Assembly (NCBI GenBank): GCA_965203055.1 | Contig: OZ241863.1 | Span: 160,001 to 224,000, forward strand | From: Spirochaetia bacterium | Lineage (GTDB): Bacteria > Spirochaetota > Spirochaetia > SZUA-6 > Bin103 | Length of the DNA stretch: 64,000 nt | Direction: 5' to 3' | Shown: in pieces, positions 16,612 to 41,391 of the stretch | How the letters are laid out: the number at the start of each line of letters is the position of its first letter | How positions within the stretch are numbered: the first letter of the stretch is position 1 | Position numbers and translations under genes: made by a program | Notes under the pieces: model-generated | Told to the model about the DNA's origin: nothing | Database searches by the model: none | Seen by the model: the letters and a program-made list of their open reading frames with translations, nothing else

Positions 16612-16628
16612 GGGCCGCGCGGGCCGCG

Positions 16629-17840: not shown

Positions 17841-17940
17841 TATGCCTAACCGATAGACCGGGATTCACAGCCGGAGCGGCTGCAGACGGTACCCCTCAAA
17901 GTTCGCTACCGCGGCGCTGCTTGTCAACCTCGGCGCCGCG

Positions 17941-17969
17941 CTGACTTCACTGAGCGCTCCCCTTATAAT
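17941..17969 (+). promoter_or_regulatory. Putative sigma-70 promoter for sulfatase-wzx
   Basis: CTGACT-17 nt-TATAAT. Confidence 0.55.
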
Positions 17970-17984
17970 ACCCGTCCATCGAAG

Positions 17985-22549: not shown

Positions 22550-23742
22550 GGCGCAGCCCATACGGTGACGCCGACGAGCGTCGACGCGAACCGGAACTTG
22601 GGTTGCGGATTGCCGTTCGACGCCAGCGCTTTGCGCGCGAGCGGCACGCCCAGTCCGAAGTGCTGCGCGAACCCCAGGTGGTGCATGACCTCGGCCAACA
22701 ACGGATTGCGATAATCGGTGTCGCCGGTGCCGAAAGTCTCCGGCGTGATCCTCCCGTACAGACCGCCCGGGCTGGTAATCTCGACGCGGTCGGCAAACCA
22801 GTAGACGCGCACCGGCGTGTTGGTCCCATCGTAGCTGCGATGCATGACCGCGTTGTGGGCCAGTTGCCGCAAAGCGTCCACCGGATAGTCCGGCCGCCGC
22901 CGCTCCCGCATCGACCCGGCGACCTGAGTGCGAACCGACACGCTTAGCTCCAGCAGCTCGCCGAGCCGGCGCAGCACGTCGTCCAGCCGGCCGGTGAGCT
23001 GATTCTGGCCTGCGATCGGGTCCGTGATCTCCTTCCCGAGGATTCGCAGGAACTGAATGTACGCACCCGGTACCAATGCCTGAGGGTCTCTGCCCAATGC
23101 GAGGATCGCTCCCCACGTGGGCGCGCCTGCATGCATCAGACGCAGAGAACGAAGTTGATGTTCGAGCGATCGCTCGTTCCGTTCCAGAACCTCACCGGCG
23201 ACGGCGTTCGGCAGGTATTGGTTGCCCACGAAGTCCAGGTCGAGGTCGTCGACGGTCGCGCCGGCGGCCGGTCTCATGTCGAACGGCAGATCGGAGGCCC
23301 GACGGCGTTCGCCAAGCAGGCGCTCGTCCGCCACCGATCCTTCGCGGACGGACGGTCCGACCCGGACCCACACGCGGCCATGATACCGTACCGGTGTCTC
23401 CGAGGATGGCTGGACCGTGACGACCGCCACCGCGCAGTTCCGTAACACCCGCTTCTGCACGGTCATCGACGGCAGCGGCAGAATGTCGCCGTCACCGCGA
23501 ATGTTCGCCAACCGTTTGAGCAATTCGTCATCGATCGACAACGACGCGCACGAGCCGTCATCCCGCACCCCGACCAGCACGACGCCCGGCTTGCCGTGCG
23601 CCGGCAGGTCATTGGCGAACGCGCAGATGTTCCGGCGAATCTTCCTGCCGTCGGCGGCCGTTTCCTTGCGCTCCGCCAAGTCGGACTCCAGGTCCGACAT
23701 CAGCGCCTCCAGCTCCGCGTCGGAGTAACTCGGCTCAGCCAT
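22546..23742 (-). CDS. AlbA_2 (Schlafen-like) plus HATPase_c_4 (RecG-C-like) domain protein
   Basis: ESDLAERKE, ICAFAN, VLVGVRDDG, VRVGPS; ALRQLAHNAVMHRSY, DRVEITSPGG, YRNPLLAE, GLGV. Confidence 0.85.
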   Translation of the reverse strand: MAEPSYSDAELEALMSDLESDLAERKETAADGRKIRRNICAFANDLPAHGKPGVVLVGVRDDGSCASLSIDDELLKRLANIRGDGDILPLPSMTVQKRVLRNCAVAVVTVQPSSETPVRYHGRVWVRVGPSVREGSVADERLLGERRRASDLPFDMRPAAGATVDDLDLDFVGNQYLPNAVAGEVLERNERSLEHQLRSLRLMHAGAPTWGAILALGRDPQALVPGAYIQFLRILGKEITDPIAGQNQLTGRLDDVLRRLGELLELSVSVRTQVAGSMRERRRPDYPVDALRQLAHNAVMHRSYDGTNTPVRVYWFADRVEITSPGGLYGRITPETFGTGDTDYRNPLLAEVMHHLGFAQHFGLGVPLARKALASNGNPQPKFRFASTLVGVTVWAAP

Positions 23743-23764
23743 CAGGATCGGCAGTCTATGCGGT

Positions 23765-25705
23765 TCACGGGGAGAACGTCGAGTCCCAGACGTGGATGTT
23801 CCCGGCCAGGTACTGACCCGTCCTGATATCGGCGATTTCGTAGTCAGGCAGCGCCACGACCGCTGCGCACCTGCCGTTCAGGAGCGCGCCGTGCGCGCCG
23901 AAGTCGAAGTCGAGGTTAGCGAAGTGGTGCCGCCGGTCCGGCAGGTCGGCGGGCTCCGACGGCACGACGTGCAGGAAGAATCGCGCCTCTACGTCGTCCG
24001 TTGCGCACGGCTCCTTGAAGTAGGTCAACGTGTTGCCGCCGGCGTCGAAATAGACGTCGAAGACCGAGCCCTCGGCGAGTCGTACCGAATCTCCGGCGAC
24101 GAGAGCCTCCAAATTGTCGGCGACGATAGCAGCCTCGAAGGCGACCCGTCGTCGATCGGCGGAGTTCTTGAGTACCTCGAAAATCGCGCCGTCGGCCAGC
24201 TCCGCGACCGGCACCAAGCCCGCCGACGCTCGCAGCAGGGCAGAGCCATAGCCATAGTAGTCATACTGCACGTCGTCGTCGAACCACACGACGTATGCGC
24301 CGTCCTGAACACCTGCAAGCCAGCGCTGCAGCTGCTCTGCCGCGACCGGCAGATCGCGAAACTCGGTTGCGTCAACGTAGAGATACACGGGGGCCCAATT
24401 GCTGTATACGACGCCCTCAAGCGGGTGCTGTCGCAGGTATTCCAGCGTCTCGGAGTCAAGCCAGTATGATGAAGCGTAGCCGCGGCAGCGGAGGCAGGAA
24501 TTGGCGCGCGCTATTTCGCGGGCGACCGGCTCGACTTGCCCGACCGTCCAGACGCAAAGCAGCGCGATGACGATGGCGCCGGCCAGTCGCGGCGGATGCT
24601 GCCGTACGGAGCTGAGCAGACGATCCAGCGTGAACGCGGCGGTGACCAGCAGCGGGACGTACAGCGGCGTCAGGAATCGGGCCTGAACCCCATGGAAGGT
24701 AGCGCCCAGCATGATCGCCGCCAGGAGCAGTAGGAGATAGATCAGCGCAAAGCCGCCGAACACGCAGCAGGGGGGCCAATCGAACGGCATCCGCGGCATC
24801 CGCCGGCGTCGCTGCGCGCCGATGACCAACCCGACCGCAACCAGCAGCCCGGCGGCCGGTACGAATCGCAGCCATTCGACCGAGACTAGCGGAAGGTCGA
24901 AGTACACCCAGTCCGCAAACCCGCGGCCGATAGCGCTCAGGACCTCCGGCAACGAATAGGGGCCGCCGTCCCGGTACCCGGTGTAGCTCCCGGCGGCCAA
25001 GCGGTTGCGTAGCAGCCACGCTGCCATCGGCGCGGTCGCGGCCAACGAGAAACCGGCGGCGCGCCGCGCGCGCTGCGCCGGCCGTGCGCCGCGCTGACCG
25101 AGCAGGAGCAGCGTGACCACGACGACGACCGCCGCGCCCAGGTAGCGGGTCTGCCACGCCAGCGCGGCCCACGCCGCCGCCCACGCCAGCGAGGAAGTCT
25201 TGTTGCGGGTCAGGTAGTCATCGGTGCGGGTCAGGGCAAGCGCGGCCAGCAGGATGAACAGGGGCTCGGTCAGCGCCCGCGATGCCAACTCCACCAGCGG
25301 GGCCGCCAGCGAGATGGCGAGAGCGGCCCATATCACCAGGACGCGCGATGCGAGGCGCCGCCGCAGGTACCGGGCGACGACGAATATGGTGATGCCGAAG
25401 AGCACGGCGTTGACCGGTCCGGCGACGGCGAGCGGGTCGAATACGTCCAGGCTGGCAACGGCCAGCAGCAGCGGGTAGAGCGGCGGCCACCAGACGTAGG
25501 GATCCCCTCGGTTGAACGTGTGGAAACCGTTGCCATCCAGCAGGTTGCGGGCTGCGGCAATGTAGCTCACCGAGTCCCAGTCCAGCGCCACGCCCCAGGT
25601 GAATTCGCTCGCCAGCACGAGGCCGGCGCCGAGCGCGGCCGCGGCGGCCAGCAGCGAGAGGTCGGCGCGCGTCCGCTCAGGCATGCGGCCGGCAGGGTGG
25701 TTCAT
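23765..25705 (-). CDS. GT-C fold (ArnT/PMT-like) membrane glycosyltransferase with C-terminal soluble domain
   Basis: GVALDWDSVSYIAAARNLLDGNG, WPPLYPLLLA, LTEPLF, QTRYLG; ATGA overlap with upstream paralog. Confidence 0.75.
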   Translation of the reverse strand: MNHPAGRMPERTRADLSLLAAAAALGAGLVLASEFTWGVALDWDSVSYIAAARNLLDGNGFHTFNRGDPYVWWPPLYPLLLAVASLDVFDPLAVAGPVNAVLFGITIFVVARYLRRRLASRVLVIWAALAISLAAPLVELASRALTEPLFILLAALALTRTDDYLTRNKTSSLAWAAAWAALAWQTRYLGAAVVVVVTLLLLGQRGARPAQRARRAAGFSLAATAPMAAWLLRNRLAAGSYTGYRDGGPYSLPEVLSAIGRGFADWVYFDLPLVSVEWLRFVPAAGLLVAVGLVIGAQRRRRMPRMPFDWPPCCVFGGFALIYLLLLLAAIMLGATFHGVQARFLTPLYVPLLVTAAFTLDRLLSSVRQHPPRLAGAIVIALLCVWTVGQVEPVAREIARANSCLRCRGYASSYWLDSETLEYLRQHPLEGVVYSNWAPVYLYVDATEFRDLPVAAEQLQRWLAGVQDGAYVVWFDDDVQYDYYGYGSALLRASAGLVPVAELADGAIFEVLKNSADRRRVAFEAAIVADNLEALVAGDSVRLAEGSVFDVYFDAGGNTLTYFKEPCATDDVEARFFLHVVPSEPADLPDRRHHFANLDFDFGAHGALLNGRCAAVVALPDYEIADIRTGQYLAGNIHVWDSTFSP

Positions 25706-27687
25706 GGCGAAAACGTCACGTCCCAGAGATGGCCTTCTCCCGGCACGTACTGGCCGGTGCGGATGCGGGCGATCTGGTAGTCGGGCAGCGGCGCGACCGC
25801 GACGCACGTTCCGTCCGGCAGATTCCCGCGTTCCGAAAACGAAAAATCGAGGTTTTCGAAGGGCCACTGCAAGCGGCGCAGGGCCGACGGGAGATCGGCG
25901 AGATCCGCCGGGACGACGTGCAGGAAGAACCGCGCATCCACCTCTTTCGCCGTGCACGGCTGCCGGAAATAGGTCAACGCGCCTTCCGCGAGATAGAGGT
26001 CGAAGTTCGAGCGCGCCGCCGGCGCGCCGTAGGAGCCGGCCCGGATCGACTCGGCCACTCGTCGATACGCCGCGTCGGCCAATCGGGCTCCCGAAGGAGC
26101 CGTCAAATTCGGCCGGCTCGGCGCGACGATCCGGAATATGGCGCCATCTTCCAGGTCCGCAACCGGTTCCACGTCCGGCAACGCCGCCAGGTCGTCGTAG
26201 TCGTAGTCGTAATTCCGAAAGAGAAACGACAGGTCGAACAAGACCACGTAGGTCGATTCGGCCGGGTCTCTGTTGGCCAACTGATCCTTCACGGTCGCCA
26301 GCGACATCGCTATCGTACCGGCGCGGATATCGGTATGAAAATAGAGCGCCTGCGGGTCGCTCGACCACCAGCCGCCCGTAAGCCGATTGGCGTTCAGGTA
26401 ACGGATGACGTCGGACTCGGTCCACTCCTTCGCCGTGTAGCCGGCGCCATCCTCCAGCCACTGCCTGATGTCGTAGTAATTCGCGCCGGCCTGCCAAATC
26501 AGCCACAGCGACATGACGACCGATACCACGACGGGAACGCTCCGGGCGCGTGCGTGCGCCATGATCCGGTCCAGTACCAGCGTCGCCGCTACCAGCAGCG
26601 GCGGAAACATCGGCAACAGGTACCTGCCGGGAAGAGTCGTGTCGCCGAGCGGCAGGAATATCGCCAGAAAGAGCGCGTACGCCGCGGTGAAGACGAGAGC
26701 AACGGTCAGTACGGTGCGGTGCGCCGGCAGGAAGCCGGGCCGGCTCCGCGCAAGCGCGTACCCGACGCCGATCGCCGGCAGGATCACTATTGCCGCATTC
26801 GCGGCGACCGCAGGTACGGTGGCGGCGCCCACGCCGACAGCGCCCCCGAGCGCGGCGTTCAGCAAGTGAGATCCGGTTTGCCCCAACAACCACAAGGCGA
26901 GCTCTCCGGTCAGGTTGTGGAGGCTGACGAGAGCGGAAAACCCGTCGGGAAGGTTGTTTCCGAAAACCGATCCTATGACGAATATGTTTCGTACCAGCCA
27001 GACGCCGAACAGCGCCGTCGAAGCGGCCGACCAGATCGCTGCGTCCCGGATCCGGGTACGAACTGCAGCGTCATTCCGCAAGAGGATGGTCAGCGCTCCG
27101 GCGCCGATCAGCGTCACCCCCAGGTAGCGGGTCAGGCTGGCGGCGGCCGCAGCGACCGCCGCCAGCAGGAGCGCCGACCGTTGCCCGGTGTTCAGAAACC
27201 GTTCCAGCAGCGAGAGCGAGACCACGACGAACAGGATGAAGACGATTTCGGTCCACGCGTGAGCCGCCGCGGGGGCCAACGCCGGAGACAGCACGCACGC
27301 GCAACCCGCCCACACGGCGAGCAGCGGCGCGCGGACGTGGCGTTGCAGCCAGGCGGTGACGGCGAAGACCGTCAACCCGAACGCGGCGGCGTTGACGGAG
27401 CCGGCCGCCGCCGCGGCGTCGACACCGAAGAGACGGACCGCGCCTAACAGCAGCGGGAAGAGCGGAGCGGCGCCCTGATACCGGGTCCCGTTCCATTCCA
27501 GGAGCCCGTTTCCGGCCACCAGATTGCGGGCGACCGACAGGTATGAACCGGAGTCCCAGGTCAGCCCCACGCCGAAGTTGGCTTCCCGCAGCAGGATGAG
27601 CAGCGCGCCGAGTACGCCGAGCGCGAGCGGCGCCCATCGGGCCAGGGCGGCCGCTGCCCCGGCGTGTTGCGGCGCGGCTCCGCCCAC
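25702..27687 (-). CDS. GT-C fold membrane glycosyltransferase paralog with the same C-terminal domain
   Basis: GVGLTWDSGSYLSVARNLVAGNG, APLFPLLL, WTEIVF, LTRYLG, RYLLPMFPP. Confidence 0.75.
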   Translation of the reverse strand: MGGAAPQHAGAAAALARWAPLALGVLGALLILLREANFGVGLTWDSGSYLSVARNLVAGNGLLEWNGTRYQGAAPLFPLLLGAVRLFGVDAAAAAGSVNAAAFGLTVFAVTAWLQRHVRAPLLAVWAGCACVLSPALAPAAAHAWTEIVFILFVVVSLSLLERFLNTGQRSALLLAAVAAAAASLTRYLGVTLIGAGALTILLRNDAAVRTRIRDAAIWSAASTALFGVWLVRNIFVIGSVFGNNLPDGFSALVSLHNLTGELALWLLGQTGSHLLNAALGGAVGVGAATVPAVAANAAIVILPAIGVGYALARSRPGFLPAHRTVLTVALVFTAAYALFLAIFLPLGDTTLPGRYLLPMFPPLLVAATLVLDRIMAHARARSVPVVVSVVMSLWLIWQAGANYYDIRQWLEDGAGYTAKEWTESDVIRYLNANRLTGGWWSSDPQALYFHTDIRAGTIAMSLATVKDQLANRDPAESTYVVLFDLSFLFRNYDYDYDDLAALPDVEPVADLEDGAIFRIVAPSRPNLTAPSGARLADAAYRRVAESIRAGSYGAPAARSNFDLYLAEGALTYFRQPCTAKEVDARFFLHVVPADLADLPSALRRLQWPFENLDFSFSERGNLPDGTCVAVAPLPDYQIARIRTGQYVPGEGHLWDVTFSP

Positions 27688-27697
27688 GTGGCGGCGG

Positions 27698-28390
27698 TCA
27701 GCGCTCGGAGCGCTTGCGGAAGACGGCGACGAAGCTCGAGCCGATGAGCGCCACCAGCGGCCCGTCAACGCCCCGCAACCGCATCCCCCACGGCGGAAAG
27801 ATCGAGAACCACTCGACCAGCGCAAGTCCTGCGCGGTCCGCCGCCGCGCGCATCCGCGACGGCGCATGATGGACAAGGGCGAATTGGCGGGCCGGGGCGA
27901 GGACGCGCAACCCGAAGGCCGCGGCGCGATGGACCCACGCGGCGCGATTGGCCCATACGATTACCAGCCGCCCGCCGGCGCGCAGCACCCGCGCCGCTTC
28001 CCGCAGAACGCGTTCGACCACGTCGGCGCTGCACTGTTGGGCCATCTCGACCATCACCGCCGCCTCCGCGGTAGCGTCCGCCAACGGCAGATCGGACGCG
28101 TCGCCGCAGATCGCCTGCAGCCCGTTGCGGCCGGCCTGCCGGCACGCCGCCCGGTTCAGGTCCACGCCGATGACCCGGCGCCCGGCCTGGATCAACGGCA
28201 ACGTCACCAGGCCGGAGCCGCAGCCGAGGTCCAGCACCGTGCCGGCGCCGCCGCCGACGGCGTGCAACACGAACGCTCGTTCGCGCTGAAACCAGCGTTC
28301 GGAGAGATAGCCCGATGCCCTGGCGCTGTTTTCGCCAAACCGCTGCCGCAGCGCGTCGTAATGGGCCTGACCATGATCGGTCTGTTCCAT
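27698..28390 (-). CDS. Class I SAM-dependent methyltransferase
   Basis: VLDLGCGSG, GVDLN, GDASDLP, ARVLRAGGRL. Confidence 0.85.
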   Translation of the reverse strand: MEQTDHGQAHYDALRQRFGENSARASGYLSERWFQRERAFVLHAVGGGAGTVLDLGCGSGLVTLPLIQAGRRVIGVDLNRAACRQAGRNGLQAICGDASDLPLADATAEAAVMVEMAQQCSADVVERVLREAARVLRAGGRLVIVWANRAAWVHRAAAFGLRVLAPARQFALVHHAPSRMRAAADRAGLALVEWFSIFPPWGMRLRGVDGPLVALIGSSFVAVFRKRSER

Positions 28391-28407
28391 CTTGGACTTA
28401 AACTTAC

Positions 28408-29340
28408 TCAATAATCCGCCAGATAGCGACACAGCCGCGGGCCAGCGCGGTCGGTCACGAAGTTCGGCAATGCCCGCCAGAGCCGCTGCGCTGCCCGGTA
28501 GCGGCGGTAGGGGTCGACCGGCTTGTCGGTCAGCCACATGACCGGTACCGGACTGGCGCCGTATTTGCGCTTGAACCAGTAGGGCCCGCTGCCGGCCGGA
28601 GAGCGCCCGAAGTCGAGGATATCCGCGCCCTCGTTCACGGCATGCTCCACCATGGTCCAATACATGAGGTAGGTGGGGTGGTCGGCAGAGAGATATGCTC
28701 CTCCCCATGGAATCCAGATGATCGGGCCATCGCGCAGCCACAGAAAGCTGGCCCGCAGAGCGCCGTCCATTCGGTTCCGAACCACCGTGATCCGCGCGTC
28801 CAGCTCCGTCATCAAAGCCTCGAACAACGCCGCGGGCGGCAGCGGCGCGCCATGCCGGCCATGAGCCAGGCGCAGCATGGCGCAAAATGCCTGCACCGCG
28901 GCCGCGCCGGTCTCTTCCGCCGCTGCCAGACCGGCCCTGCGGGCGCGCTGCACGTACTTGCGCGCCGTGCGATTGAGGCCCCGTTGCCACACCGCCTCTC
29001 GATCATGGCCAAAGGCGGCCAGGTCGACCCTGAGAACCGCGGGCGATCCCGGCGGCAGTTCCCCTTCCCTGCGCGGCGGCGCCAGCGCCCGAATGTTGAA
29101 CCGACGCCCCGCCATCTCGCGCGCCAGCTCCTGCGCCTCGACCGGGTCCAGGTCGGAATAGCTCAGACCCGGCAGATAGGCGAACACCGGCTTTCCCATG
29201 AGTGCGGGAACCACGGCGAATCGACCGGCCCGCCGCCAGCGATAGACGCCGCAGGCTACCGACCGCCACGCGTCGACGAAGTCGGCGCTGTGCCTGACGG
29301 TCGATCGCGCGATTTCCGGCGCTTCGATCACGCGCCGCAT
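28408..29340 (-). CDS. FemAB-like GNAT-fold (aminoacyl/acyl) transferase
   Basis: RKYVQRARRAGL, HGAP, MYWTMVEHA, LDFGRS, YWFKRKYGA. Confidence 0.75.
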   Translation of the reverse strand: MRRVIEAPEIARSTVRHSADFVDAWRSVACGVYRWRRAGRFAVVPALMGKPVFAYLPGLSYSDLDPVEAQELAREMAGRRFNIRALAPPRREGELPPGSPAVLRVDLAAFGHDREAVWQRGLNRTARKYVQRARRAGLAAAEETGAAAVQAFCAMLRLAHGRHGAPLPPAALFEALMTELDARITVVRNRMDGALRASFLWLRDGPIIWIPWGGAYLSADHPTYLMYWTMVEHAVNEGADILDFGRSPAGSGPYWFKRKYGASPVPVMWLTDKPVDPYRRYRAAQRLWRALPNFVTDRAGPRLCRYLADY

Positions 29341-29456
29341 CACCGGGCGAAGCGGAGGTTGGCCCTGGCGGCCAAGCCGGCGCGCCGGCCGGGCATCCGC
29401 AGGCAACTGCGGCCGACGACGGTGACGTGCATACCTAACAAATATACAATCGAAGG

Positions 29457-30464
29457 GTGACCGGTCTCAACAGACTGCCGACGCACCGGATGCGCTGGGC
29501 CAAGCCCTGGACCTGGGCCGTCGCCGCGGCGGTCAGCTTGGCGTTGTTTGGCGTGGTCGCCGCACGGCTCGATGCCGCTTCTCTGGCAGCGGTGGCACAG
29601 CAGCTTTCCTGGCCGCCGGTGGGGGCTGCGTTGGCGCTGCTGCTGGCGGGGCACCTGTTCAGTGCCCTGCGCACCCATCTGATCGCCGAGGACCACGTGT
29701 TCAGCACGGCCCTGCGGGTCAGCGCTTGGCACGCAATCTGGCTGATCGCGCTGCCGATGCGCCTGGGCGAAGTGGCGTGGCTGGTCAGCATGCGCAAGGC
29801 CTACGGCTGGAACGCGGCCACGGCAGTCGTCTGCGGCCTGGTGCAGCGGCTGCTGGACTTGGCGGTCATTGCCGCCCTTCTGCTGCTGGCGATGCCGGCC
29901 ATCTTCATCCCGGGCCGGATCGAAGCGCCGCTGGCCGGCGCGCTGGCGGCGGCGGCCGGCGCGCTGGCGCTCATGGGAGCCGTGACCCTGCCGGTCTGGC
30001 TGCGCCTGACCGGCCGCCTGGTAATTGCGGCCGGCCGCCCCCGTGGCTGGCGCGCGCGCTTGCTGCGCCACCTGTGGCGCGGCCGGCGGTGGCTGGAAAG
30101 CGGCCGCCACCGGCGCATCGTGCGGCTCTGCCTGGTGCCTACGGCGTTGTCGTGGATGGCAATCTTCGGCGGCTACTGGCTGCTCTGCCGCGCCGTCGGC
30201 CTGGACGCGGCCTGGTCCGAGGTGCTGTTCGCGGCCGCCGGCGGCAATCTGATCACCGCCCTGCCGGTACAATCGATCGGCGGGTTCGGGCTGCTGGAGG
30301 CGGGCTTCACCGGCATCCTCGCCTGGTTGGGCTCACCTGCCGATACCGCCGCCGCGGCGGCGCTGACCATTCGCTTCGTCGGCTGGGTCGGCACCGGCCT
30401 GTTCTGGCTCCTCAGCCTGGTTGCGGGCCTGCGCGTATACCGCCGGTTGGCGCGGCAATCATGA
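29457..30464 (+). CDS. Lysylphosphatidylglycerol-synthase TM domain (UPF0104, flippase-like) protein
   Basis: ALPMRLGE, QRLLDL, LPVQSIGGFGLLEAG; ~8 TM segments. Confidence 0.8.
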   Translation: MTGLNRLPTHRMRWAKPWTWAVAAAVSLALFGVVAARLDAASLAAVAQQLSWPPVGAALALLLAGHLFSALRTHLIAEDHVFSTALRVSAWHAIWLIALPMRLGEVAWLVSMRKAYGWNAATAVVCGLVQRLLDLAVIAALLLLAMPAIFIPGRIEAPLAGALAAAAGALALMGAVTLPVWLRLTGRLVIAAGRPRGWRARLLRHLWRGRRWLESGRHRRIVRLCLVPTALSWMAIFGGYWLLCRAVGLDAAWSEVLFAAAGGNLITALPVQSIGGFGLLEAGFTGILAWLGSPADTAAAAALTIRFVGWVGTGLFWLLSLVAGLRVYRRLARQS

Positions 30465-31357
30465 GGTGGCGCAGCGGACGGGCCTTCGACGCCGCGGCGC
30501 ACCGGATCGAGGCGCGGCGCGTGCCCCACAAGGTCGCCGCGCTGACCATCGACGTGGAGCACGACTACAACGGCGGCGGCAGCGAGGCGTTGAACCGGTT
30601 GCCCGATCTGCTGGCCGCGGTAGCGGGCATGGGGATGCCGTTGACGGCCTTCGTCGAAGGGCGCCTGTTCGTCGAACGCCCCGATCTTTGCACCTGCCTG
30701 ATCGAGGCCGGGGCCGACCTGCACCTCCACTGCCATGACCACCGCCGGCCGGGCGACACCGCGGAGAGCCTCGAGGCGGGCATCGACGCGTTCGGGAGCT
30801 TCGTCGGCGCCGCGCCGCGCGGCTACCGCGCGCACACCTACGGCTTGACGGAAGATTTGTTCGACGCGCTGATGGCGGCCGGCTTCGCCTGGGATTCCTC
30901 CATCCTGCCGGGCATCGGCTTCGGCTGCCGGCCGGACGCCGTGTTTCGGCGCGGCGACTGGTTTCTGTTCGACGACTCGCTGGCTGAGTATCCGGTGGCG
31001 AGCTGGCGGTGGCGGGGCCGGGGCACGATCCCGTTCATCTGCTCCTACCGGCAGCTCCTGGGACCGTTCGGCGAATCGATGCTGGAGCGCGCCGCGGCCT
31101 TGCCCGATCTGGTGGTATACGACATGCACATGGTCGATCTGGTGCCGGACGGCCGCCTCGGCAAGTCGCCGCTGCCGCTGTGGTTGAAGGGCGCCCACGC
31201 GCTGGTTCGGCGGCGCCAGCGGGGATTCGGCGACCTGGCGGCGCTGGGCGAACGCCTGCGCCGTCAAGGCTATCGCTGGACCACGATGACGGCGTTGCAT
31301 GAACGGTCGATGAACGGGGCCGGCCGCGGCGAGCCCGGCGCGGTCGGCCAGGGCTAG
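30461..31357 (+). CDS. Polysaccharide deacetylase family protein
   Basis: LTIDVEHD, TAFVEG, HCHDH, GYRA, WDSS; ATGA overlap with upstream gene. Confidence 0.8.
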   Translation: MRWRSGRAFDAAAHRIEARRVPHKVAALTIDVEHDYNGGGSEALNRLPDLLAAVAGMGMPLTAFVEGRLFVERPDLCTCLIEAGADLHLHCHDHRRPGDTAESLEAGIDAFGSFVGAAPRGYRAHTYGLTEDLFDALMAAGFAWDSSILPGIGFGCRPDAVFRRGDWFLFDDSLAEYPVASWRWRGRGTIPFICSYRQLLGPFGESMLERAAALPDLVVYDMHMVDLVPDGRLGKSPLPLWLKGAHALVRRRQRGFGDLAALGERLRRQGYRWTTMTALHERSMNGAGRGEPGAVGQG

Positions 31358-34300: not shown

Positions 34301-36171
34301 GACAGGACGCAGGCGCAGGCCGCCCAGACGGCCAGCAGCCGGGATCGGACGCGGCTGCGCACCCATGTGGCCACGGCGTATACCGTCAGACCGAAGGCGG
34401 CGGCATTGACGTATCCCGCCGCCGTGACCGCGTCCGCTCCGAACAGGCCGGCGCCCGCCAGGGTCAGCGGGAAGAGCGGCGCCGCGACTCGATACGAGGC
34501 GCCCAGAAAGGTGACCAGCCCGTTGCCGTCCAGCAGGTTGCGCGCGACCGACACGTACAACGCCGAGTCGGCCGTCAGCCCCGGCCCGTAGGCGGCCTCC
34601 CGCAGCAGCACCAGCAGCGCGCCGACCCCGCCGAGCGCCGCCAGCAACATCGGCAACCCGTCCAGCCGGGCTGCCCGGCGAACGGCGCCGCTGCGCGCCA
34701 GAGCGCGCCGGGCGGCGTTCGCGGCGTTCGCGGCGCGGCTGCGCGCCAGAGCGCGCCGGGCGGCGTTCGCGGCGTTCGCGGCGCGCCGGGCCAAGCCGGT
34801 CTCCAGGACGGCCGCGAGCGCGGCGCACAGCGGCAGCGCGTACGGCACGAACAGGTATCGCCCGCGGCGGTAGATCAGGTCGTCGGGCACCAGCAGCTGC
34901 ACGGAGGCAAGCGCCATGAGCGCCGCGATCCACCCCATGGCGCGCAGCGGCGCCGGGCGGCCGCTGCGCGCCTGCAGGGCCGCGGCCCAGGCGGCCGCGG
35001 CGCACGCCAGGGCCGCGGCCCCGGTCAGGATACTGCCGGCCGGCGCGCTTCCCAACCCGACCTGCCAGTACGGCTCGAGAACGCCTGCGGTATCAAGGAG
35101 TCGATCACGAGTCTGCCGGCCGACGGTCAGGTCCAGGACGAAGAGCCACCTGCTGGTCAAGATCCGCCACGTCAGTCCATCCTGCGGTGCCCCTTCGCAC
35201 GCTGCCCGCCACGCGAACCAGTCGGGAACGAGACACGCCTCGAGCGCCATCTTGGCCGCCTGACCCAAGGCGTACGCGGCTGCGAATCCGGCGACGCAGA
35301 GCCCGATGCACCCGCCGGCGAGCCGCGCCCTGCGGGCCGGTTCGCCTTGGTGGCCGTACCCGAAGTAGACCAGCATGCCGATGAGCGTGAACAGCGGGAT
35401 GGTGATCGCGTCGCCCAGCGACAGGTAGGCCGCCACCATGCCGGCGGCGAAGCAGACCAGCCGCGTCAGCCGCAGGCGCGTCTCCGGCGGGATCCCCGCC
35501 GGCAGCCGCGCGCGCATGACGACGACCAGCGCGACGGCCGCCCAGACCGTCCAAGCGTACGGCATGCCGTTGGGTGCGCCGGAGAACCAGCGGATGCCGG
35601 AGAACAGGCCGCCGAAGAGGATCAGCGGCGCCAGGATGACCAGCGTGCGGGGCGCGAGCAGCAGCAGCGCGGCCGCCAGCGCGATCCAACCGGCGTACGC
35701 GGCATACCGTATCAGCATGCGGATGTCTCGCACGGAAAAGGTGCGCAGCAAGATGGCATAGAGCGCCTTGCTTCCCCACCAGTATTGCGGCGATGAGAAT
35801 TCCTCGTCGACGCGCATCCCGTTTACGGCGTCCGCCAGCTCGTCGCAGTAATCGTAGTAGTAGCCGGTTCCCGGCACCAGCACCTTCGGCAGCACCGCGT
35901 CAAGCAGAGCGTTGCCGCCGGTCTCCTGCGGCAGGAACGCCCCGGCCAGGACCATCGCCGACAGCTTGCAGTGCTCGAACGGAGTCTTGAATCCCGCGGC
36001 GATGCCCGCGTCGGGCCGTTCCGCCTCGAAATCCGCCGCGAACCGCTGCGCCGCGGTGCGGTAGTGAATCTGATTGCCGAGGTGGTGCAGGAATATGAAC
36101 AGCGCGGTGCCGGCCAGCGCGGCCGCGGCGTAGACCGCGACCGCCCGCAGGCGCCGCCGCCGGGGGGGCAT
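31354..36171 (-). CDS. Large (~1600 aa) fusion: N-terminal polytopic membrane module + GT-C module + two copies of the unnamed soluble domain + polysaccharide deacetylase-like domain (start 36171 or 36213)
   Basis: QYWWG membrane module; GPGLTADSALYVSVARNLLDGNG; 2x RFFL/LDFDF/IRTGQ-type domain; AISITYDG, GHGHWH, AYAYPRG, WIIPVYH, FWVAP. Confidence 0.75.
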   Translation of the reverse strand: MPPRRRRLRAVAVYAAAALAGTALFIFLHHLGNQIHYRTAAQRFAADFEAERPDAGIAAGFKTPFEHCKLSAMVLAGAFLPQETGGNALLDAVLPKVLVPGTGYYYDYCDELADAVNGMRVDEEFSSPQYWWGSKALYAILLRTFSVRDIRMLIRYAAYAGWIALAAALLLLAPRTLVILAPLILFGGLFSGIRWFSGAPNGMPYAWTVWAAVALVVVMRARLPAGIPPETRLRLTRLVCFAAGMVAAYLSLGDAITIPLFTLIGMLVYFGYGHQGEPARRARLAGGCIGLCVAGFAAAYALGQAAKMALEACLVPDWFAWRAACEGAPQDGLTWRILTSRWLFVLDLTVGRQTRDRLLDTAGVLEPYWQVGLGSAPAGSILTGAAALACAAAAWAAALQARSGRPAPLRAMGWIAALMALASVQLLVPDDLIYRRGRYLFVPYALPLCAALAAVLETGLARRAANAANAARRALARSRAANAANAARRALARSGAVRRAARLDGLPMLLAALGGVGALLVLLREAAYGPGLTADSALYVSVARNLLDGNGLVTFLGASYRVAAPLFPLTLAGAGLFGADAVTAAGYVNAAAFGLTVYAVATWVRSRVRSRLLAVWAACACVLSTSLVDVAVYAWPEIPFILFAVAALATLDRFLRTGRRSSLLLAAAAAAAACLTHYAGVALIGSGALLLLLPRTAAVRSRLAHAAVWSGVAAAPVGAWLVSSVVVSGASLATAGSGGFLPLPSLHTATSELVRWLIGGAGLGLLDRLARGIAGAGAAGYPRAAVLGLRIAVLLVPAAGAGYLLARARSQLLPAPHAAAMALVFAAAYALYLLLALPAADAALELRHLAPLFPPLLVTAAVVLDRLIAALRPERRGLVRRRLAAALLFSTWFAPQVGATTEHVNQWLANGGGYASRRWSESAVMRYLNAAGGTPAAPLLGTDGAALYLLTTAADTGPHQLPRELSPTRARLAAEGAAGREHYVVWFYQDSGRHGYDLETLIRTPGMEVAAAVDDGVILRSGAPDGTPEADGFMRPLLQDAGIGVQSGFTVYLDAAANRLIYFKSGCGDADAAARFFLHVHPVNHNDLPLHSWAFHNLDFDFDRHGFHYRGRCVAIRDLPDYRIAYLATGQFTPRDGQLWNVTLTEPRARRDFAVHWRGNTLVYLKEPCAAEDVRAQFFLRLRPAAAEGFDHLEFDFRDYGVAADGRCRAVVPLPAYEIAGIRTGQQAAAGGEPLWAAEFTASRPPPAPPELTIAKWFDDHAAAISITYDGVSRAPNRIDKLVLDEGLVLDYEIVTQRYLDQVPDWVEHDLTELVPDVVPGDLYRPMTDAAIEHSLSLTAHGFGFFGHGHWHVDHDALTYAQAYDSFRLCFEVMEDLGLEPVAYAYPRGAGGEAETQQALADAGFLAGRLSFPAMGQTPYIVPDAATTPENWFFLPGLTMESIRFRECEWCINDTSELVPVLDQALARTAWIIPVYHNIGSAGWGFYEWEDFEGDVRAIAARDFWVAPMNDVVLYLRERERAEAALQVIERDGVTRRIAFVLADGLDNDRFDQPLTLRFRRPADWFGAPLEVTQNGRLVARIAAFAETAAISLPPNEEPYLVQPS
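34690..34785. repeat. Perfect 48-bp x2 in-frame tandem duplication
   Basis: GCTGCGCGCCAGAGCGCGCCGGGCGGCGTTCGCGGCGTTCGCGGCGCG twice; encodes RAANAANAARRALARS x2. Confidence 0.92.
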
Positions 36172-36306
36172 CCCAGCCTCGGCCGCCGCCGCCCCGGTCA
36201 CGCCGCCGGCCACGCGGCGGCCGCGCCGCGCCGGCCGGCGCGGCCGGTTGCATCGAGCGCGGCTCGTTTGTACTCTGCCGGTCCTGTCCCCCGCAGCGAA
36301 CCCGGC

Positions 36307-37479
36307 ATGTCCGATACGTCACACCCAGCGCGCGCGCAGTACAACCTGACGATCCTGATTCTATGCCGCAACGAGGAGGGAGCTATCGCCCACTGCGTCG
36401 GCGAAGCGCGCGGATTCCTGGAACGAAACGCCATCGACGGCGAGGTCGTGGTGGTGGACAACGGCAGCCGCGACCGCTCGGCGGAGCTGGCCGGAGAGGC
36501 CGGCGCACGCGTGGTGGCAGAACCTAGCGCCGGTTACGGCAACGCCATCAACGCCGGCATCGAAGCCGCTCGCGGGCAGTTCATCATCTTGGGAGACGGC
36601 GACGGCGAACATGATCTGGGAGCGCTGGAAGCATACTACGAAAAGCTGCGCGGCGGCTACGACTTCGTGTTCGGGAACCGGTTCGCGCAAGGCGTCCACG
36701 CCTCGGGCCGGCTGCGCAACGCCGGCACCGCGGTGTTGTCCGGCGTCGGCAAGCTGCTGTTCCGATCACCGGTCAGCGACTTCAACTGCGGCCTGCGGGG
36801 GTTCAAGGCGTCCAGCGCCCGTTCCCTCGGGCTGCGCTGCTCCGGGATGGAGGCCGCCAGCGAGATGATCGTCAAGGCGGTGCAGGCGGACATGCGCATC
36901 GCCGAAGTGCCGGTGGTGCAGCGCAGCGCGCTCGATCCGGAGCGCGCCTCGCACCTGCGGGTGTGGAGCGACGGCTGGCGTCATCTGCGGCTCCTGTTGA
37001 TGCTGTCGCCGCGCTGGCTGTACCTCTATCCGGGGTGTCTGCTGCTGGCGGCCGGAGCGCTGGCGATACTCGTCCCCATTCTGGACCCCGTCGAAGCGGG
37101 CGGCGACTACGGATCGCACACCATGCTGTTCGGTTCCGCCTTCGTGGTGTGCGGCGTCCAGCTCGTCATCTTCTCGCTGCTGGCACACCTCTTCTGCGAG
37201 AACATCGGCCTGGCGGCCGGGCGCTGGTCGGCGCGCCTGAGAAGTGGCCGCGTCCTCGACGGCAGCCTGGCGGCCGGCCTGCTGATGGTGCTGCTCGGAG
37301 CGGCGGGAAGCATCTGGAGCCTGTACGTATGGGCGAGGACCAGTGGGCCGGACCTCGAGACGCGGATGCGAGTCGCGATTTCCTCCGTTACCGTGCTGAT
37401 CTGCGGCGTGCAACTGATCTTCTCGGCGTTCTTCTTCGCGCTGCTGGCAACCCAGGGGACCATGCGCGACCGGAGCTAG
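36307..37479 (+). CDS. DPM1-like GT2 (polyprenol-phosphate glycosyltransferase) with C-terminal TM helices
   Basis: CRNEE, VVDNGSRDRS, GYGNA, GDGDGEH, FGNRF, SDFNCGLRGF, GMEAASEM, SHLRVWSDGWRHLR. Confidence 0.88.
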   Translation: MSDTSHPARAQYNLTILILCRNEEGAIAHCVGEARGFLERNAIDGEVVVVDNGSRDRSAELAGEAGARVVAEPSAGYGNAINAGIEAARGQFIILGDGDGEHDLGALEAYYEKLRGGYDFVFGNRFAQGVHASGRLRNAGTAVLSGVGKLLFRSPVSDFNCGLRGFKASSARSLGLRCSGMEAASEMIVKAVQADMRIAEVPVVQRSALDPERASHLRVWSDGWRHLRLLLMLSPRWLYLYPGCLLLAAGALAILVPILDPVEAGGDYGSHTMLFGSAFVVCGVQLVIFSLLAHLFCENIGLAAGRWSARLRSGRVLDGSLAAGLLMVLLGAAGSIWSLYVWARTSGPDLETRMRVAISSVTVLICGVQLIFSAFFFALLATQGTMRDRS

Positions 37480-37504
37480 CGACCGCCGGGTCACCCCGCG
37501 CTTG

Positions 37505-38494
37505 TCACTTTTCCGGCTGCGCCTGCGCGCGCGGCGTCGCCATGATCTCGCGCGGCTCACCCGGTCCGGCGGCGTTGCGGGCTCGCACCTGGATCCGGTA
37601 GAGCACGCCGTTGGACAGGCCGGGCAGCGTCTGGCTGGTGGTCAGGTAGGTGCTGTCGGCGACGGTTCTCCAGCTCCGCCAGTCGGCGTCGCCGGGGCCG
37701 CGCAGCCGGAACTCGTAGGCGGTGATGCCGGCGTCGCCCGGATCCTCCCAGGCGAGGTCGATGCGGTGGTCGCCGGCCAGCGCCGTCAGACCGGCCGGCG
37801 CCGCGGGGGGCGCGCCGGTAGGCGCCGGCGGGCGCGGCGTCGCCGAGGTACCGCTCGGCGGGCTGGCGCCGGCGGCGTTGCGGGCGCGTACCTGGATCTG
37901 ATAGAGCGCGCCGTTGGACAGGCCGCGCCGCAGCGTGTGCCTGGTCGTCGCGTGCGTACTGCCGGGGACGGCTTGCCAGCGTGGCCAGTCGGATTCGCCC
38001 GCGCGGCGAAACCGGAACTCGTAGGAGGCGATGCCGGCGTCACCGGGATCGTTCCAGCCGATGCTGATGCTGCCGTCGCCCGCCCGCGCCGTCAAACCGG
38101 CCGGCGCGGCCGGCGCCAGCGGGCGCGGCGTCGCCGAGGTCGGGCTCGGCTCACCCGGTCCGGCGGCGTTGAGGGCGCGCACCTGGATCTGATAGAGCAC
38201 GCCGGCAGTCAAGTTTGGCAGCGTATGGCTGGTCGTGCCGTGCGAGCTGTTGGCGAGCGGTCTCCAGGGCCGCCATTCGGCGTCGCCGGGGGCGCGCAAC
38301 CGCACCTCGTAGGAGGCGATGTCGGCGTCGCGCGGGTCGTCCCAGCGGAGGTTGATGCTGCGGTCTCCGGGCAGCGCCATCAAACCGGCCGGCGCGGCGG
38401 GCGGCATGCTCGGTTGCGGCAGTTCCGTAGCGCAGCTTGCCAGCGCAATCACTACTCCGAACGCACTCAGGCGCTTGCTCATTCCGCTTGTCAC
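37505..38494 (-). CDS. Lipoprotein with three fibronectin type III repeats
   Basis: Lipobox LASC; 3x PAAPAGL..GD.SI.L.W.DP..Y..R..W..W..L.NG.LY.IQVRA.NAAG. Confidence 0.85.
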   Translation of the reverse strand: MTSGMSKRLSAFGVVIALASCATELPQPSMPPAAPAGLMALPGDRSINLRWDDPRDADIASYEVRLRAPGDAEWRPWRPLANSSHGTTSHTLPNLTAGVLYQIQVRALNAAGPGEPSPTSATPRPLAPAAPAGLTARAGDGSISIGWNDPGDAGIASYEFRFRRAGESDWPRWQAVPGSTHATTRHTLRRGLSNGALYQIQVRARNAAGASPPSGTSATPRPPAPTGAPPAAPAGLTALAGDHRIDLAWEDPGDAGITAYEFRLRGPGDADWRSWRTVADSTYLTTSQTLPGLSNGVLYRIQVRARNAAGPGEPREIMATPRAQAQPEK

Positions 38495-39438
38495 AGGATT
38501 CCCTCCGTGTTCCTCTGGCGCAGATAATGTACGGTGCGGGCGACTCCTTCGGCGAGCGCGACCGCGGGCCGCCAGCCGAGCAGGTCGGCGGCCCGCGATA
38601 CGTCGAGCCAGCTCTCGCGCACTTCACCGGGCCGCGCCGGTCCGGCGGCCGCTGTGAGGTCGGAGCCGCACGCGGAGCGAATCAATCGAAACAGGTCGCC
38701 CGTGTGGACCGGGTTCCCCCCCGAGATGTTGAACGGCCCGGCGGCGCTGCTCTCCAGGGCGCGCAAGTTGGCCTGCGCTACGTCATCCACGTGCACGTAG
38801 TCGCGGGTCATCCCCGCGGGCTGATCGGGGAAGGCATAGATGGTCGGCCGTTCACCGCGCAGCAGCTTCTCGCTGAAGATGGCGACTACGCCGGCCTCGC
38901 CGTGTGGATCCTGGCGCGCGCCGTACACGTTGCCGTAGCGCAGCGCGACCGAATCGAGACCATGCTCCCGCCGGTAGAACTCCAGGTAGCGCTCGCCGGT
39001 CATCTTGTGGATGCCATAGAGAGACCGCGGCCGCAACGGCGCGTCCTCGGGAGTCGGCCGCGCCGCGGCGTCGCCGTAGACGGCGCCGCCGCTGGAGGAG
39101 AACAGGAAGCGGCCGACCTCGTGCTCCACGCAGCTTTGCAGGGTGGCGAGCAATCCCAGGCAATTTACGCGGGCGTCGAGCTGCGGATCGCGCGCCGAGA
39201 CGGCGATGCTCGTCTGGGCAGCGTGATGGCTGACCAGGTGCGGACGCTCCTTGGCGAGGATCGCGGAAAACTCCGGGCCGCCGGCGTCCGCTACGTGGAG
39301 CCGGGCGCCGCGCGGCACCTGTTCCGCTCGTCCGCTGCGCAAGTTGTCCACGACCGCCACTTCGTGGCCGGCGGCGAGGAAGAGCTCCGCCACGTGCGAG
39401 CCGATGAAGCCGGCCCCGCCGGTAATCAGAGTCTTCAT
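38491..39438 (-). CDS. NAD-dependent epimerase/dehydratase (UDP-glucose 4-epimerase-like)
   Basis: TGGAGFIGSH, HHAAQ, SSGGAVYG, YGIHK, LRYGNVYG, TRDYVHVDD. Confidence 0.9.
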   Translation of the reverse strand: MKTLITGGAGFIGSHVAELFLAAGHEVAVVDNLRSGRAEQVPRGARLHVADAGGPEFSAILAKERPHLVSHHAAQTSIAVSARDPQLDARVNCLGLLATLQSCVEHEVGRFLFSSSGGAVYGDAAARPTPEDAPLRPRSLYGIHKMTGERYLEFYRREHGLDSVALRYGNVYGARQDPHGEAGVVAIFSEKLLRGERPTIYAFPDQPAGMTRDYVHVDDVAQANLRALESSAAGPFNISGGNPVHTGDLFRLIRSACGSDLTAAAGPARPGEVRESWLDVSRAADLLGWRPAVALAEGVARTVHYLRQRNTEGIL

Positions 39439-39453
39439 TCGCTGCCGCCCGCC

Positions 39454-41391
39454 TCACTTGGTGTGCGAGGTGGACCGATTCGGCGTTGCCGAAGTCTGGC
39501 TCGGCTCACTCGGTCCGGCGGCGTTGCGGGCGCGCACCTGGATCTGGTAGAGCACGCCGTTGGTCAGGCCGGGCAGGAGGTGGCCGGTCGTGGTGTGCGT
39601 GCTGCCGTCGATGGCCCGCCAGCGCCGCCAGTCGGCGTCGCGCGGGGCGCGCAGCCGGAACTCGTAGGAGGCGATGCCGGCGTCGCCCGGGTCGTCCCAG
39701 CCGAGGCTGATGCTCAGGTCACCGGGCCGCGCCGTCAGACCGGTGGGCGCCTCAGGCGGCGCGCCGCGGGGGGCCGGCGGACGCGGCGTCGCCGAAATCT
39801 CGCCGGGCGCGCCGGCCCCGGCGGCGTTGCGGGCGCGCACCTGGATCTGGTAGAGCACGCCGTTGGCCAAGCCGCGCAGCAGGGTATAGCCGGTGGTGTC
39901 GTGAGAACTGCCGGCGATCGGCCTCCAGTCGGGCCAGTAGGCGTCCTGGGCGGGGCGGATGCGATACTCGTAGGAGGCGATGCCGGGGTCGCCCGGATCG
40001 TTCCAACTGAGGCTGATGCTGCGGTCTCCGGTCAGCGCCGCCAGCGCGCCCGGCGCTGCCGGCAGCAGCGGGCGCGGCGTGGCGGAGGTCTCGCCGGGCG
40101 CGCCGGGGCCGGCGGCGTTGCGGGCGCGTATCTGGATCTGGTAGAGCACGCCGTTGGCCAGGCCGCGCAGCAGGGTATAGCCGATGGTGTCGTAGGAACT
40201 GCCGGCGATCGGCCTCCAGTCGGGCCAGTCGGCGTGCTGCGCGGGGCGGATGCGGTACTCGTAGGAGGCGATGCCGGGGTCGCCGGGATCGTTCCAGTCG
40301 AGGCTGATGCTGCGGTCGCCCGGCAGCGAGGTGAGGCCGCTCGGCGCCGCCGGAGGCGGTGGGAGCGGCGTTGCGGAGGTCTCGCCGGGGGCGCCGGGGC
40401 CGGCGGCGCTGCGGGCGCGTATCTGGATCTGGTAGAGCAGGCCGTTGGCGAGGCCGCGCAGGAGCGTAAAGCCGGTGGTCGCGTGGGAGCTGCCGGCGAT
40501 CGCGTTCCAGTCGGGCCAGTCGGCGTGCTGCGCGGGGCGGATGCGGTACTCGTAGGAGGCGATGGCGGGATCGCCGGGGTCGTTCCAGTCGAGGCTGATG
40601 CTGCGGTCGCCCGGCAGCGCGGTAAGGCCGCTCGGCGCGTCCGGCGGCGGCGAGAGCGGCGTTGCGGAGATCTCGCTGGCCGCCCCGGTGCCGGCGGCGT
40701 TCAGGGCGCGTACCTGGATCCGGTAGGCAACGCCGGCAGTCAGGCCGGGCAGGGTGTGGCTGGTAGTCGCGTGGGTACTGCCGGCGGCGATCTTCCAGTC
40801 CCGCCAATCGGCGTCGCGGGGAGCGCGCAGGCGCACTTCGTAGGAGACGATGCCGGCGTCGTGCGGGTCGTCCCAGTCGAGGTCGATGCTGCGGTCGCCC
40901 GGTTGCGCCGTCAGACCGCCCGGCGCCGCCGGTGCCAGCGGCAGCGGCGTTGCGGAGGTTTCGCTCGGCGGGCTGACGCCGGCCGCGCTGCGCGCGCGCA
41001 CCTGGATCCGGTAGGGCACGCCGGGGGTCAGACCGGGCAGCGCGTGGCTGGTAGTCGCGCCGGTACTGCCGGCGACGACCTTCCAGCTCCGCCAGTCGGC
41101 GTCGCGGGGAGCGCGCAGGCGCACTTCGTAGGAGACGATGCCGGCGTCGTGCGGGTCGTCCCAGTCGAGGTCGATGCTGCGGTCGCCCGGTCGCGCCGTC
41201 AGGCCGCCCGGCGCCGCCGGCGGCGAGGCTTCCGGCGCCGCTTCCGGCAGCTCGGACGGCGCTTCCGGCGCCGCCGGCCCCGGCGCGCCTGCCGCCGGCG
41301 AAACGCAGCTCGCCGCGCCAAGTACCACCGCCGCCACTGCCAAGGTTCCTGCCAATGGCATTACCAGTCGTTTGATCATTCCGCTTGTCAT
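39454..41391 (-). CDS. Lipoprotein with six fibronectin type III repeats
   Basis: ATG 41391 overlaps upstream TGA; lipobox AASC; six ~95-aa FN3 units. Confidence 0.88.
   Translation of the reverse strand: MTSGMIKRLVMPLAGTLAVAAVVLGAASCVSPAAGAPGPAAPEAPSELPEAAPEASPPAAPGGLTARPGDRSIDLDWDDPHDAGIVSYEVRLRAPRDADWRSWKVVAGSTGATTSHALPGLTPGVPYRIQVRARSAAGVSPPSETSATPLPLAPAAPGGLTAQPGDRSIDLDWDDPHDAGIVSYEVRLRAPRDADWRDWKIAAGSTHATTSHTLPGLTAGVAYRIQVRALNAAGTGAASEISATPLSPPPDAPSGLTALPGDRSISLDWNDPGDPAIASYEYRIRPAQHADWPDWNAIAGSSHATTGFTLLRGLANGLLYQIQIRARSAAGPGAPGETSATPLPPPPAAPSGLTSLPGDRSISLDWNDPGDPGIASYEYRIRPAQHADWPDWRPIAGSSYDTIGYTLLRGLANGVLYQIQIRARNAAGPGAPGETSATPRPLLPAAPGALAALTGDRSISLSWNDPGDPGIASYEYRIRPAQDAYWPDWRPIAGSSHDTTGYTLLRGLANGVLYQIQVRARNAAGAGAPGEISATPRPPAPRGAPPEAPTGLTARPGDLSISLGWDDPGDAGIASYEFRLRAPRDADWRRWRAIDGSTHTTTGHLLPGLTNGVLYQIQVRARNAAGPSEPSQTSATPNRSTSHTK

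Follow-up and report, generated by a model that had tools for sequence, protein, structure and literature searches.

Within a 64,000-nt stretch of the genome of a Spirochaetia bacterium (contig OZ241863.1, positions 160,001 to 224,000; hereafter the window), we found a gene cassette that is best read, at a probability of roughly 0.64, as a three-component extracytoplasmic glycosylation system of the Gtr/Arn type acting on a surface glycan, either a polysaccharide or a glycolipid. Under this reading, a family 2 glycosyltransferase (GT2) would load a sugar on polyprenyl phosphate, as family-level evidence indicates; a deacetylase, a FemAB-like acyltransferase and a methyltransferase may tailor an N-acetyl sugar, on the donor or on the polysaccharide repeat; a UPF0104 protein would flip the donor; and paralogous glycosyltransferases of the GT-C fold (GT-Cs), carrying an immunoglobulin (Ig)-like tail, would transfer the sugar outside the membrane, as the fold seen in a structural model suggests. 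Acceptors would be several sites on a surface glycan, for which the nearby-encoded Wzx/Wzy polymer or a glycolipid is the most plausible candidate. An original prediction for positions 23,765 to 41,391 had instead proposed that the GT-Cs glycosylate neighbouring lipoproteins built of fibronectin type III (FN3) domains, possibly on the Trp of a WxxW motif. These proteins appear rather to be a repeat family particular to the lineage and part of the same surface package; they look like bystanders, not targets of a new bacterial Trp glycosylation, and their WxxW is probably an inherited feature, structural or glycan-binding.

Several observations favour a glycan acceptor: the ArnT/PMT/AglB-like fold of the GT-Cs, their linkage to GT2 genes rather than to FN3 genes (15/26 versus 1/26 loci), a recently transferred block that holds the enzymes and no FN3 gene, and the position of the multi-FN3 gene away from the cassette in three related genomes (G011, G012 and G015). 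To these are added the occurrence of the tail on GT-Cs, arylsulfotransferases and GtrII-, GT87-, Wzy_C- and SGNH-type proteins, the repeats at the 5’ ends of some of these genes, and the Wzx, Wzz and Wzy_C genes nearby.

Genes of the cassette and the adjoining polysaccharide locus

The genome that carries the window (G000) is a single contig of 4.56 Mb (69% GC, 96% complete), and five public runs from two studies that match it (word share 0.26-0.84) bear a sponge metagenome label. The components of the original prediction, namely a GT2, a UPF0104 flippase-like protein, three GT-Cs and two FN3 lipoproteins, are all present, and the three-component logic of donor synthase, flippase-like protein and GT-C proved genuine, with the GT-C fold confirmed and the link between GT2 and GT-C conserved across loci. 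Absent from that account were the deacetylase, the FemAB-like GNAT protein, the methyltransferase, the C-terminal tail domain shared by the GT-Cs, and the Wzx, Wzy_C and Wzz genes at 15,394-21,547.

Two of the GT-Cs open the cassette on the reverse strand. Paralogue A (23,765-25,705; 646 aa) consists of a membrane domain, a periplasmic domain and one Ig-like tail; it matches PMT_2 (E = 0.006) and the hidden Markov model of the tail, and has a 96% identical copy in G011, a genome of another genus. Paralogue B (25,702-27,687; ~661 aa, with a probable start taken from the 661-aa called gene P0001) has the same architecture. They are followed on this strand by an S-adenosylmethionine-dependent methyltransferase (27,698-28,390; PF08241, 7e-19), counted as part of the cassette and also adjoining a GT-C in G010, G011, G015 and locus L069, and by the FemAB-like GNAT acyltransferase (28,408-29,340; PF13480, 1e-11; TIGR03019, 5e-28, under its cut-off). 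The forward strand carries the UPF0104 membrane protein, a putative flippase (29,457-30,464; PF03706, 4e-28; TIGR00374, 1.5e-5), and a polysaccharide-deacetylase-family protein with no evident signal peptide (30,461-31,357; PF01522, 1e-3; TIGR03006, 4e-6, under its cut-off; PDB deacetylases at E = 8e-4 and 4e-3). The third GT-C lies in the middle of a 1619-aa fusion, G (31,354-36,213, reverse strand; weak PMT/PMT_2 matches), between an N-terminal membrane domain and two tails followed by a C-terminal deacetylase-like domain, for which a PF01522 match was obtained only in the G010 homologue and none in the window protein. The N-terminal membrane domain of G (~500 aa; 34,714-36,213, reverse strand) also occurs alone with a tail in locus L075 and is possibly another lipid-donor transferase family; it matched no Pfam family, and a GT-C profile gave it a probability of only 3.9%.

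The GT2 (36,307-37,479, forward strand) has C-terminal membrane helices and is probably a polyprenyl-phosphate-sugar synthase, judging by its matches to PF00535 and to AglJ (2e-31) and PpgS (1e-22), the latter two under their cut-offs. It had been called DPM1-like. The gene is in place and DPM synthase is among its matches, but ArnC and GtrB-type structures are about equally near (PDB matches all near E = 1e-5), so the label does not imply mannose. Beyond it, on the reverse strand, a GalE-like NDP-sugar epimerase/dehydratase gene (38,491-39,438; PF01370, 4e-50; TIGR01179, 6e-48) separates two lipoprotein genes, one encoding three WxxW FN3 repeats (37,505-38,494; three PF00041 matches, an AlphaFold2 (AF2) model and a lipobox-like Cys judged by eye) and probably not an acceptor, the other encoding six (39,454-41,391; six PF00041 matches). 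The interval 36,771-39,418 is covered without a break by contigs of two public runs, at 3-4 differences, which rules out an assembly artefact behind the adjacency of GT2, FN3 lipoprotein and epimerase.

On the other side, and no more than 9 kb from the cassette, lie a Wzz-like chain-length protein and a Wzy_C-family polymerase or ligase (15,394-17,840, reverse strand; PF02706, PF04932; TIGR03007, 2e-11), a candidate source of the acceptor glycan, and a Wzx-type polysaccharide flippase (20,057-21,547, forward strand, start approximate; PF13440, 5e-23). More GT2, GT4 and epimerase genes surround this region. Between these genes, a sulfatase with one WxxW FN3 domain and a C-terminal membrane anchor (17,985-20,057, forward strand) adjoins wzx, as it does in all five genomes with this FN3 clade.

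This organization is akin to the GtrA/GtrB/Gtr* systems of O-antigen glucosylation and to the Citrobacter pentofuranose system, in which, according to the available part of PMC11127046, the same three-component logic of synthase, flippase candidate and GT-C forms one mobile unit beside polysaccharide genes. It differs from them in that the flippase candidate is of the UPF0104 type rather than the GtrA type, the GT-Cs are PMT_2-like, with a periplasmic domain and an unannotated Ig-like tail, and come in many paralogues, tailoring genes are added, and lipid A genes were not found. The tailoring pair recalls Caulobacter HfsH/HfsK, a deacetylase and a Fem-like GNAT acting on polysaccharide (PMC5362036, partial text), and the XrtA-associated TIGR03006/TIGR03019 pair, both likewise tied to Wzx/Wzy-type polysaccharide; here, by comparison, both scores are under the TIGR cut-offs and the genes travel with the GT2/GT-C cassette.

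Fold and family of the GT-C enzymes

The AF2 model of paralogue B, built on an 84-row alignment (pLDDT 92), has a multi-helix GT-C fold with a periplasmic domain, and the top 20 rows of a VIA structure search were all GT-C-fold proteins (Z 12-28). Foldseek placed ArnT first (E = 1e-8), then AftD, ALG12 and STT3, with DPY19 13th (E = 1e-5); VIA gave PMT 27.6 and 26.8, ArnT 24.5, AglB 24.1 and DPY19, again 13th, 17.7 (root-mean-square deviation 4.4 over 447 aligned residues). As modelled, the fold is thus nearer PMT, ArnT and AglB (Z 24-28) than DPY19. Pfam agrees: among 20 members of the clade, PMT_2 was matched in 17 and PMT (PF02366) in nine, the latter weakly (best E = 3e-5; 19.9 bits for paralogue G against a curated cut-off of 22.7), and DPY19 (PF10034) in none at E up to 10 within HMMER’s filters, nor elsewhere in the genome. 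The comparison with DPY19, PMT and ArnT structures proposed with the original prediction therefore gave no special closeness to DPY19.

The shared motif G.GL..DS described in that prediction holds for its DS, present in all three paralogues, but not throughout for its first part, since A has G.AL. In the first external loop, the Asp is near-invariant (79/80 alignment rows) and is followed by Ser. In DPY19, an Asp can replace the catalytic Glu as base, and the sequon pocket is marked by Leu474 and Tyr395/Tyr578 (PMC10154233, partial text). The acceptor is not settled by a GT-C fold alone, and with an Asp accepted as base in DPY19, the structural rank makes the Trp idea less probable but no more than that. 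Less specific searches were also made: paralogue B and its alignment had no useful match among solved-structure sequences, and the ESM Atlas returned PMT/PMT_2 or unannotated clusters from Chloroflexota and Actinomycetota for the whole protein. Oligosaccharyltransferases (STT3/PglB/AglB) have a WWDYG-type motif, and none was found in any six-frame open reading frame (ORF) of the genome.

The nearness to PMT raises the reading that the GT-Cs are protein O-glycosyltransferases acting on Ser/Thr of secreted proteins, including the FN3 lipoproteins, with the tail recognizing the substrate in the manner of PMT, TMTC and TMEM260. PMT has the top VIA scores, resembles these enzymes most closely in membrane-domain geometry, is the source of the weak PF02366 matches and, as actinobacterial Ppm1/Pmt, likewise works with a nearby donor synthase; the lipoproteins are 15% Ser/Thr with one invariant Thr. 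The MIR domain of PMTs sits in loop 5, and here there is none, a C-terminal periplasmic domain and Ig-like tail being found instead. O-mannose on FN3 domains has a eukaryotic precedent in four proteins (PMC11292533, partial text), and the FN3 clade and the GT-Cs occur in the same genomes (5/41; see below). PMT, however, covers only the membrane part of paralogue B (residues 1-401), whereas ArnT also covers the periplasmic domain (1-510); the DE motif of loop 1, described as universal in Pmt homologues in the available text of PMC8698208, was not found in the three window paralogues or in the family alignment, DS standing in its place; the tail is common to sulfotransferases and acetyltransferase-like proteins; and PF00041 was unmatched in three of 19 GT-C-bearing genomes. 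We consider Ser/Thr glycosylation unlikely on balance. A literature search returned nothing on GT-C glycosylation of spirochete lipoproteins.

A further possibility, which we hold to be quite improbable, is that the GT-Cs act as ArnT does, placing an amino sugar on the phosphate of a membrane lipid and so changing surface charge. Among solved structures, Foldseek puts ArnT closest, the combination of GT2, deacetylase-family enzyme, flippase and GT-C mirrors arnC-arnD-arnT-arnEF, and the one segment that hhalign paired with the single E. coli ArnT sequence is the first loop, Asp on Asp (E = 0.38, not significant). Against this, the deacetylase has no significant sequence similarity to E. coli ArnD. 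Moreover, profiles for LpxC and LpxB, whose controls scored over cut-off in 4/14 genomes, had no match in this single-contig genome of 96% completeness, so that lipid A is an unlikely acceptor and was rejected as such.

Neighbourhood, transfer and the WxxW FN3 proteins

Scanning a genome collection with a 20-sequence GT-C alignment yielded 26 loci, from Spirochaetia, Dehalococcoidia, Binatia, Bryobacterales, Nitrospirales, Pseudomonadales, Paracoccaceae, Arenicellales and others. Within 10 kb of the GT-C, a GT2 homologue was present in 15 of them (13/22 outside spirochetes), a methyltransferase in four and a GNAT in three. An FN3 gene was found at a single locus, from a spirochete and syntenic with the window, and PF00041 had no match in the aforementioned 3/19 genomes, all non-spirochete and of unstated completeness. 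The proposed co-occurrence of this GT-C clade with FN3 genes thus turned out not to be a conserved co-encoding.

The cassette is horizontally traded and was recently exchanged between genera. A 14.6-kb block of the window (21,558-36,143), with all three GT-Cs, is 96-98% identical to G011 DNA (blastn), and the GT2 is 81% identical, against a background between G000 and G011 of 66-72% for housekeeping genes and 68% for FN3 genes. No FN3 gene was present in the 60 kb of G011 fetched around the shared block, so the mobile unit is the enzyme cassette without FN3 genes; G011 has WxxW FN3s of its own elsewhere in its genome. In a tree of 40 GT-C domains, the three window paralogues do not branch together; each pairs with a near-identical sequence of G011. 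The tree also groups near-identical copies taken from records of Nitrospirales, Arenicellales, Thalassobaculaceae, Pseudomonadales and Paracoccaceae (bin labels as recorded). ParA-like and AlbA_2/RecG-C genes (21,557-23,742, reverse strand) lie inside the block (96%) and may mark a mobile edge. With an FN3 gene at one of 26 loci and none in the transferred block, the FN3 proteins are not supported as acceptors, and that part of the original prediction is weakened.

Some observations weigh the other way. Deacetylase and flippase genes each accompany the GT-C at only 4/26 loci (for the flippase, all spirochete), which makes the tailoring genes a variable component of the unit. The close WxxW FN3 clade (at least 113 bits; next best 81) and a full GT-C occur in the same five of 41 kin genomes (G000, G010, G011, G012 and G015), and these fall into two separate clades when 23 genomes are placed on an RpoB tree (excluding G007 and G033, both partial, and without G002, G009 and G017-G023). 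Within the close FN3 clade, WxxW is invariant (59/59 domains of 18 homologues). The cassette is not adjacent to wzx in G011, G012 and G015, the highest VIA score belongs to a protein O-mannosyltransferase (Z 27.6 versus 24.5 for ArnT), and it is gene context that points to a glycan as acceptor. The GT2 and a close Wzx orthologue have exactly the same five-genome distribution, so that the pattern links the FN3s with the surface package as a whole, including the polysaccharide. Only in G000 and G010 does the cassette have FN3 lipoprotein genes on its flanks; in the other three, the multi-FN3 gene stands by dnaA/yidC.

As originally described, all FN3 domains of the window carry WxxW (10/10: six, three and one in the sulfatase), with the same ten pentamers, and most lipoprotein repeats (8/9) end in SATP. 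They match the FN3 profile (PF00041) and adopt a beta-sandwich fold in the model. The ten domains are 46-87% identical and their WxxW occupies one alignment column; being copies of one repeat, they count as one inherited feature, and we rejected the treatment of 10/10 as ten independent observations. (The chance of WxxW anywhere in one 94-aa domain is ~2.7% at the window Trp frequency.) SATP falls at the last FN3 strand in the model and was rejected as a special O-glycosylation tag. Genome-wide, 11 of 13 PF00041 domains belong to the WxxW clade, the other two lacking the motif, and all 21 FN3 domains at the fetched loci of four kin genomes carry it. Among 40 more distant homologues (91 domains, 59 ungapped at both positions), both Trp were present in 24/59, and the first was Tyr or Phe in 12/59.

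On these data we weighed the idea that the GT-Cs C-glycosylate the first Trp of WxxW, as bacterial counterparts of DPY19. The two share the GT-C fold, an acidic residue in the first external loop (here the invariant Asp) and a periplasmic or luminal domain, and WxxW occurs on neighbouring proteins, in G000 and G010 from adjoining genes; the constancy of the motif in the genome, its kin and close homologues points the same way. However, eight or more other GT-Cs score above DPY19, PF10034 is unmatched, and co-occurrence with WxxW proteins is not conserved. Among the FN3 domains sampled, mid-domain WxxW is equally common with the GT-C (8/54 domains; 30 loci from other-phylum genomes) and without it (7/48; 12 kin genomes, 26 loci). 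AF2 places the motif in the ordered C-C’ segment, right before the short C’ strand (pLDDT 95). Profile alignments match the C’ Trp of titin domains to the second Trp and that of contactin-2 to the first, which makes one of the pair a usual FN3 residue. The replacement of the first Trp in distant domains, the identical five-genome pattern of Wzx, and the fact that one sequon does not explain six GT-C paralogues also count against it. Trp as the target is accordingly weakened, and we regard it as very improbable. Its boldest form has one of the three GT-Cs as a Trp C-glycosyltransferase acting before folding on the invariant first Trp, with a tailored amino sugar and not mannose, so that a sponge symbiont would show host-like C-glycosylated FN3 repeats; this we take to be highly improbable as well. 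If true, it would be the first bacterial protein C-glycosylation in the literature searched (mostly without subscription papers, and without supplements), which, including the available part of PMC12990085, yielded no report of Trp C-glycosylation of a bacterial protein.

FN3 enrichment is already known in sponge symbionts (PMC11706023, partial text). An FN3 model matched in none of five genomes, a weak result, as these were chosen for zero or one PF00041 match and no positive control was included. Single WxxW FN3 domains are appended to a glycoside-hydrolase-like lipoprotein, a sulfatase and an unannotated secreted protein (L058:4824-6632, L061:6032-7831 and G000:C1:1,064,423-1,065,514), the first fusion being seen in G011 and G015 (judged by eye). 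Such a distribution is suggestive of a module that moves between proteins and serves in anchoring or glycan binding. The lone FN3 gene near 1,064 kb has a GT-C remnant at a distance of 15 kb, near 1,049 kb; large unrelated genes intervene, and linkage was rejected.

Three features of the surroundings may be recorded here. The surface-glycan region sits wholly between split groups of pyrimidine/carbamoyl-phosphate genes (carB and pyrK versus pyrR-like, pyrB, pyrC and carA; 8,505-12,611 and 46,408-50,659), in a layout identical in G010. A gene at 12,063-15,446 (forward strand) encodes a protein with two internal repeats, each closing in a weak GT2-like domain, whose G010 orthologue has one copy. 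A small outer-membrane beta-barrel gene (45,592-46,341, reverse strand) is 62% identical to its G010 orthologue, versus 77-89% for the flanking genes.

A tail domain shared by GT-Cs and sulfotransferases

Each GT-C ends in a domain of ~110 residues that has no Pfam match. Its predicted structure is an Ig-like beta-sandwich (Z about 6-7, without specificity for one match); it has 1925 relatives at the 50% identity cluster level, and the ESM Atlas gave no usable match with the tail alone. The genome holds 35 copies in 24 ORFs, comprising six GT-Cs of the window clade, nine of a second PMT_2 clade, eight arylsulfotransferases and one fragment. Among the 147 best-matching new tail proteins, 27 were window-clade GT-Cs, 20 second-clade GT-Cs and 13 like the N-terminal domain of fusion G, with six in smaller classes, 32 fragments and 49 unclassified; none contained FN3. 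Pfam matches to these 49, mostly under cut-off, were to PMT/PMT_2 (seven), SGNH/GDSL (three) and GT87, ALG3, GtrII, DUF2079 and Wzy_C (once each), the rest giving nothing or implausible matches. Further fusion partners of the tail are dimethylformamidase-beta-like proteins, an unannotated membrane family and AftB-like GT-Cs (L075:13291-15657, L077:15080-16957, L083:6011-7645 and L056:6447-13438). A literature search of the same scope (mostly without subscription papers, and without supplements) found no report of the tail domain or this toolkit in sponge symbionts.

Elsewhere in the genome, two clusters (G000:C1:2,782,000-2,815,000 and 2,944,000-2,998,000) alternate second-clade GT-Cs, tail-bearing arylsulfotransferases and AAA-ATPase/PD-(D/E)XK genes. 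The second-clade clusters also hold a GtrB-like GT2, a UbiA prenyltransferase, a Sulfotransfer_2 gene and a Wzy_C protein, and several donor types seem to feed the GT-Cs. Three second-clade GT-C genes carry perfect 8-base repeats at their 5’ ends, in 28, 22 and 19 copies, and one arylsulfotransferase gene has 12 copies of a 7-base repeat (G000:C1:2,802,673; 2,988,110; 2,992,981; 2,793,543 for the four genes); the window has none. Such 5’ repeats are typical of phase-variable surface antigens. These are likely slippage switches, and they fit antigenic variation of a glycan.

Read as surface-glycan decoration, the donor-lipid cassette would supply a sizeable array of GT-Cs and sulfotransferases, in part phase-variable, with one unannotated tail in common, and would open a route to symbiont glycans that are sulfated and decorated. 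The system is most interesting for its unannotated tail and its cross-phylum toolkit, and would show sponge symbionts building and swapping surface identity with genes that move between genera and phyla.

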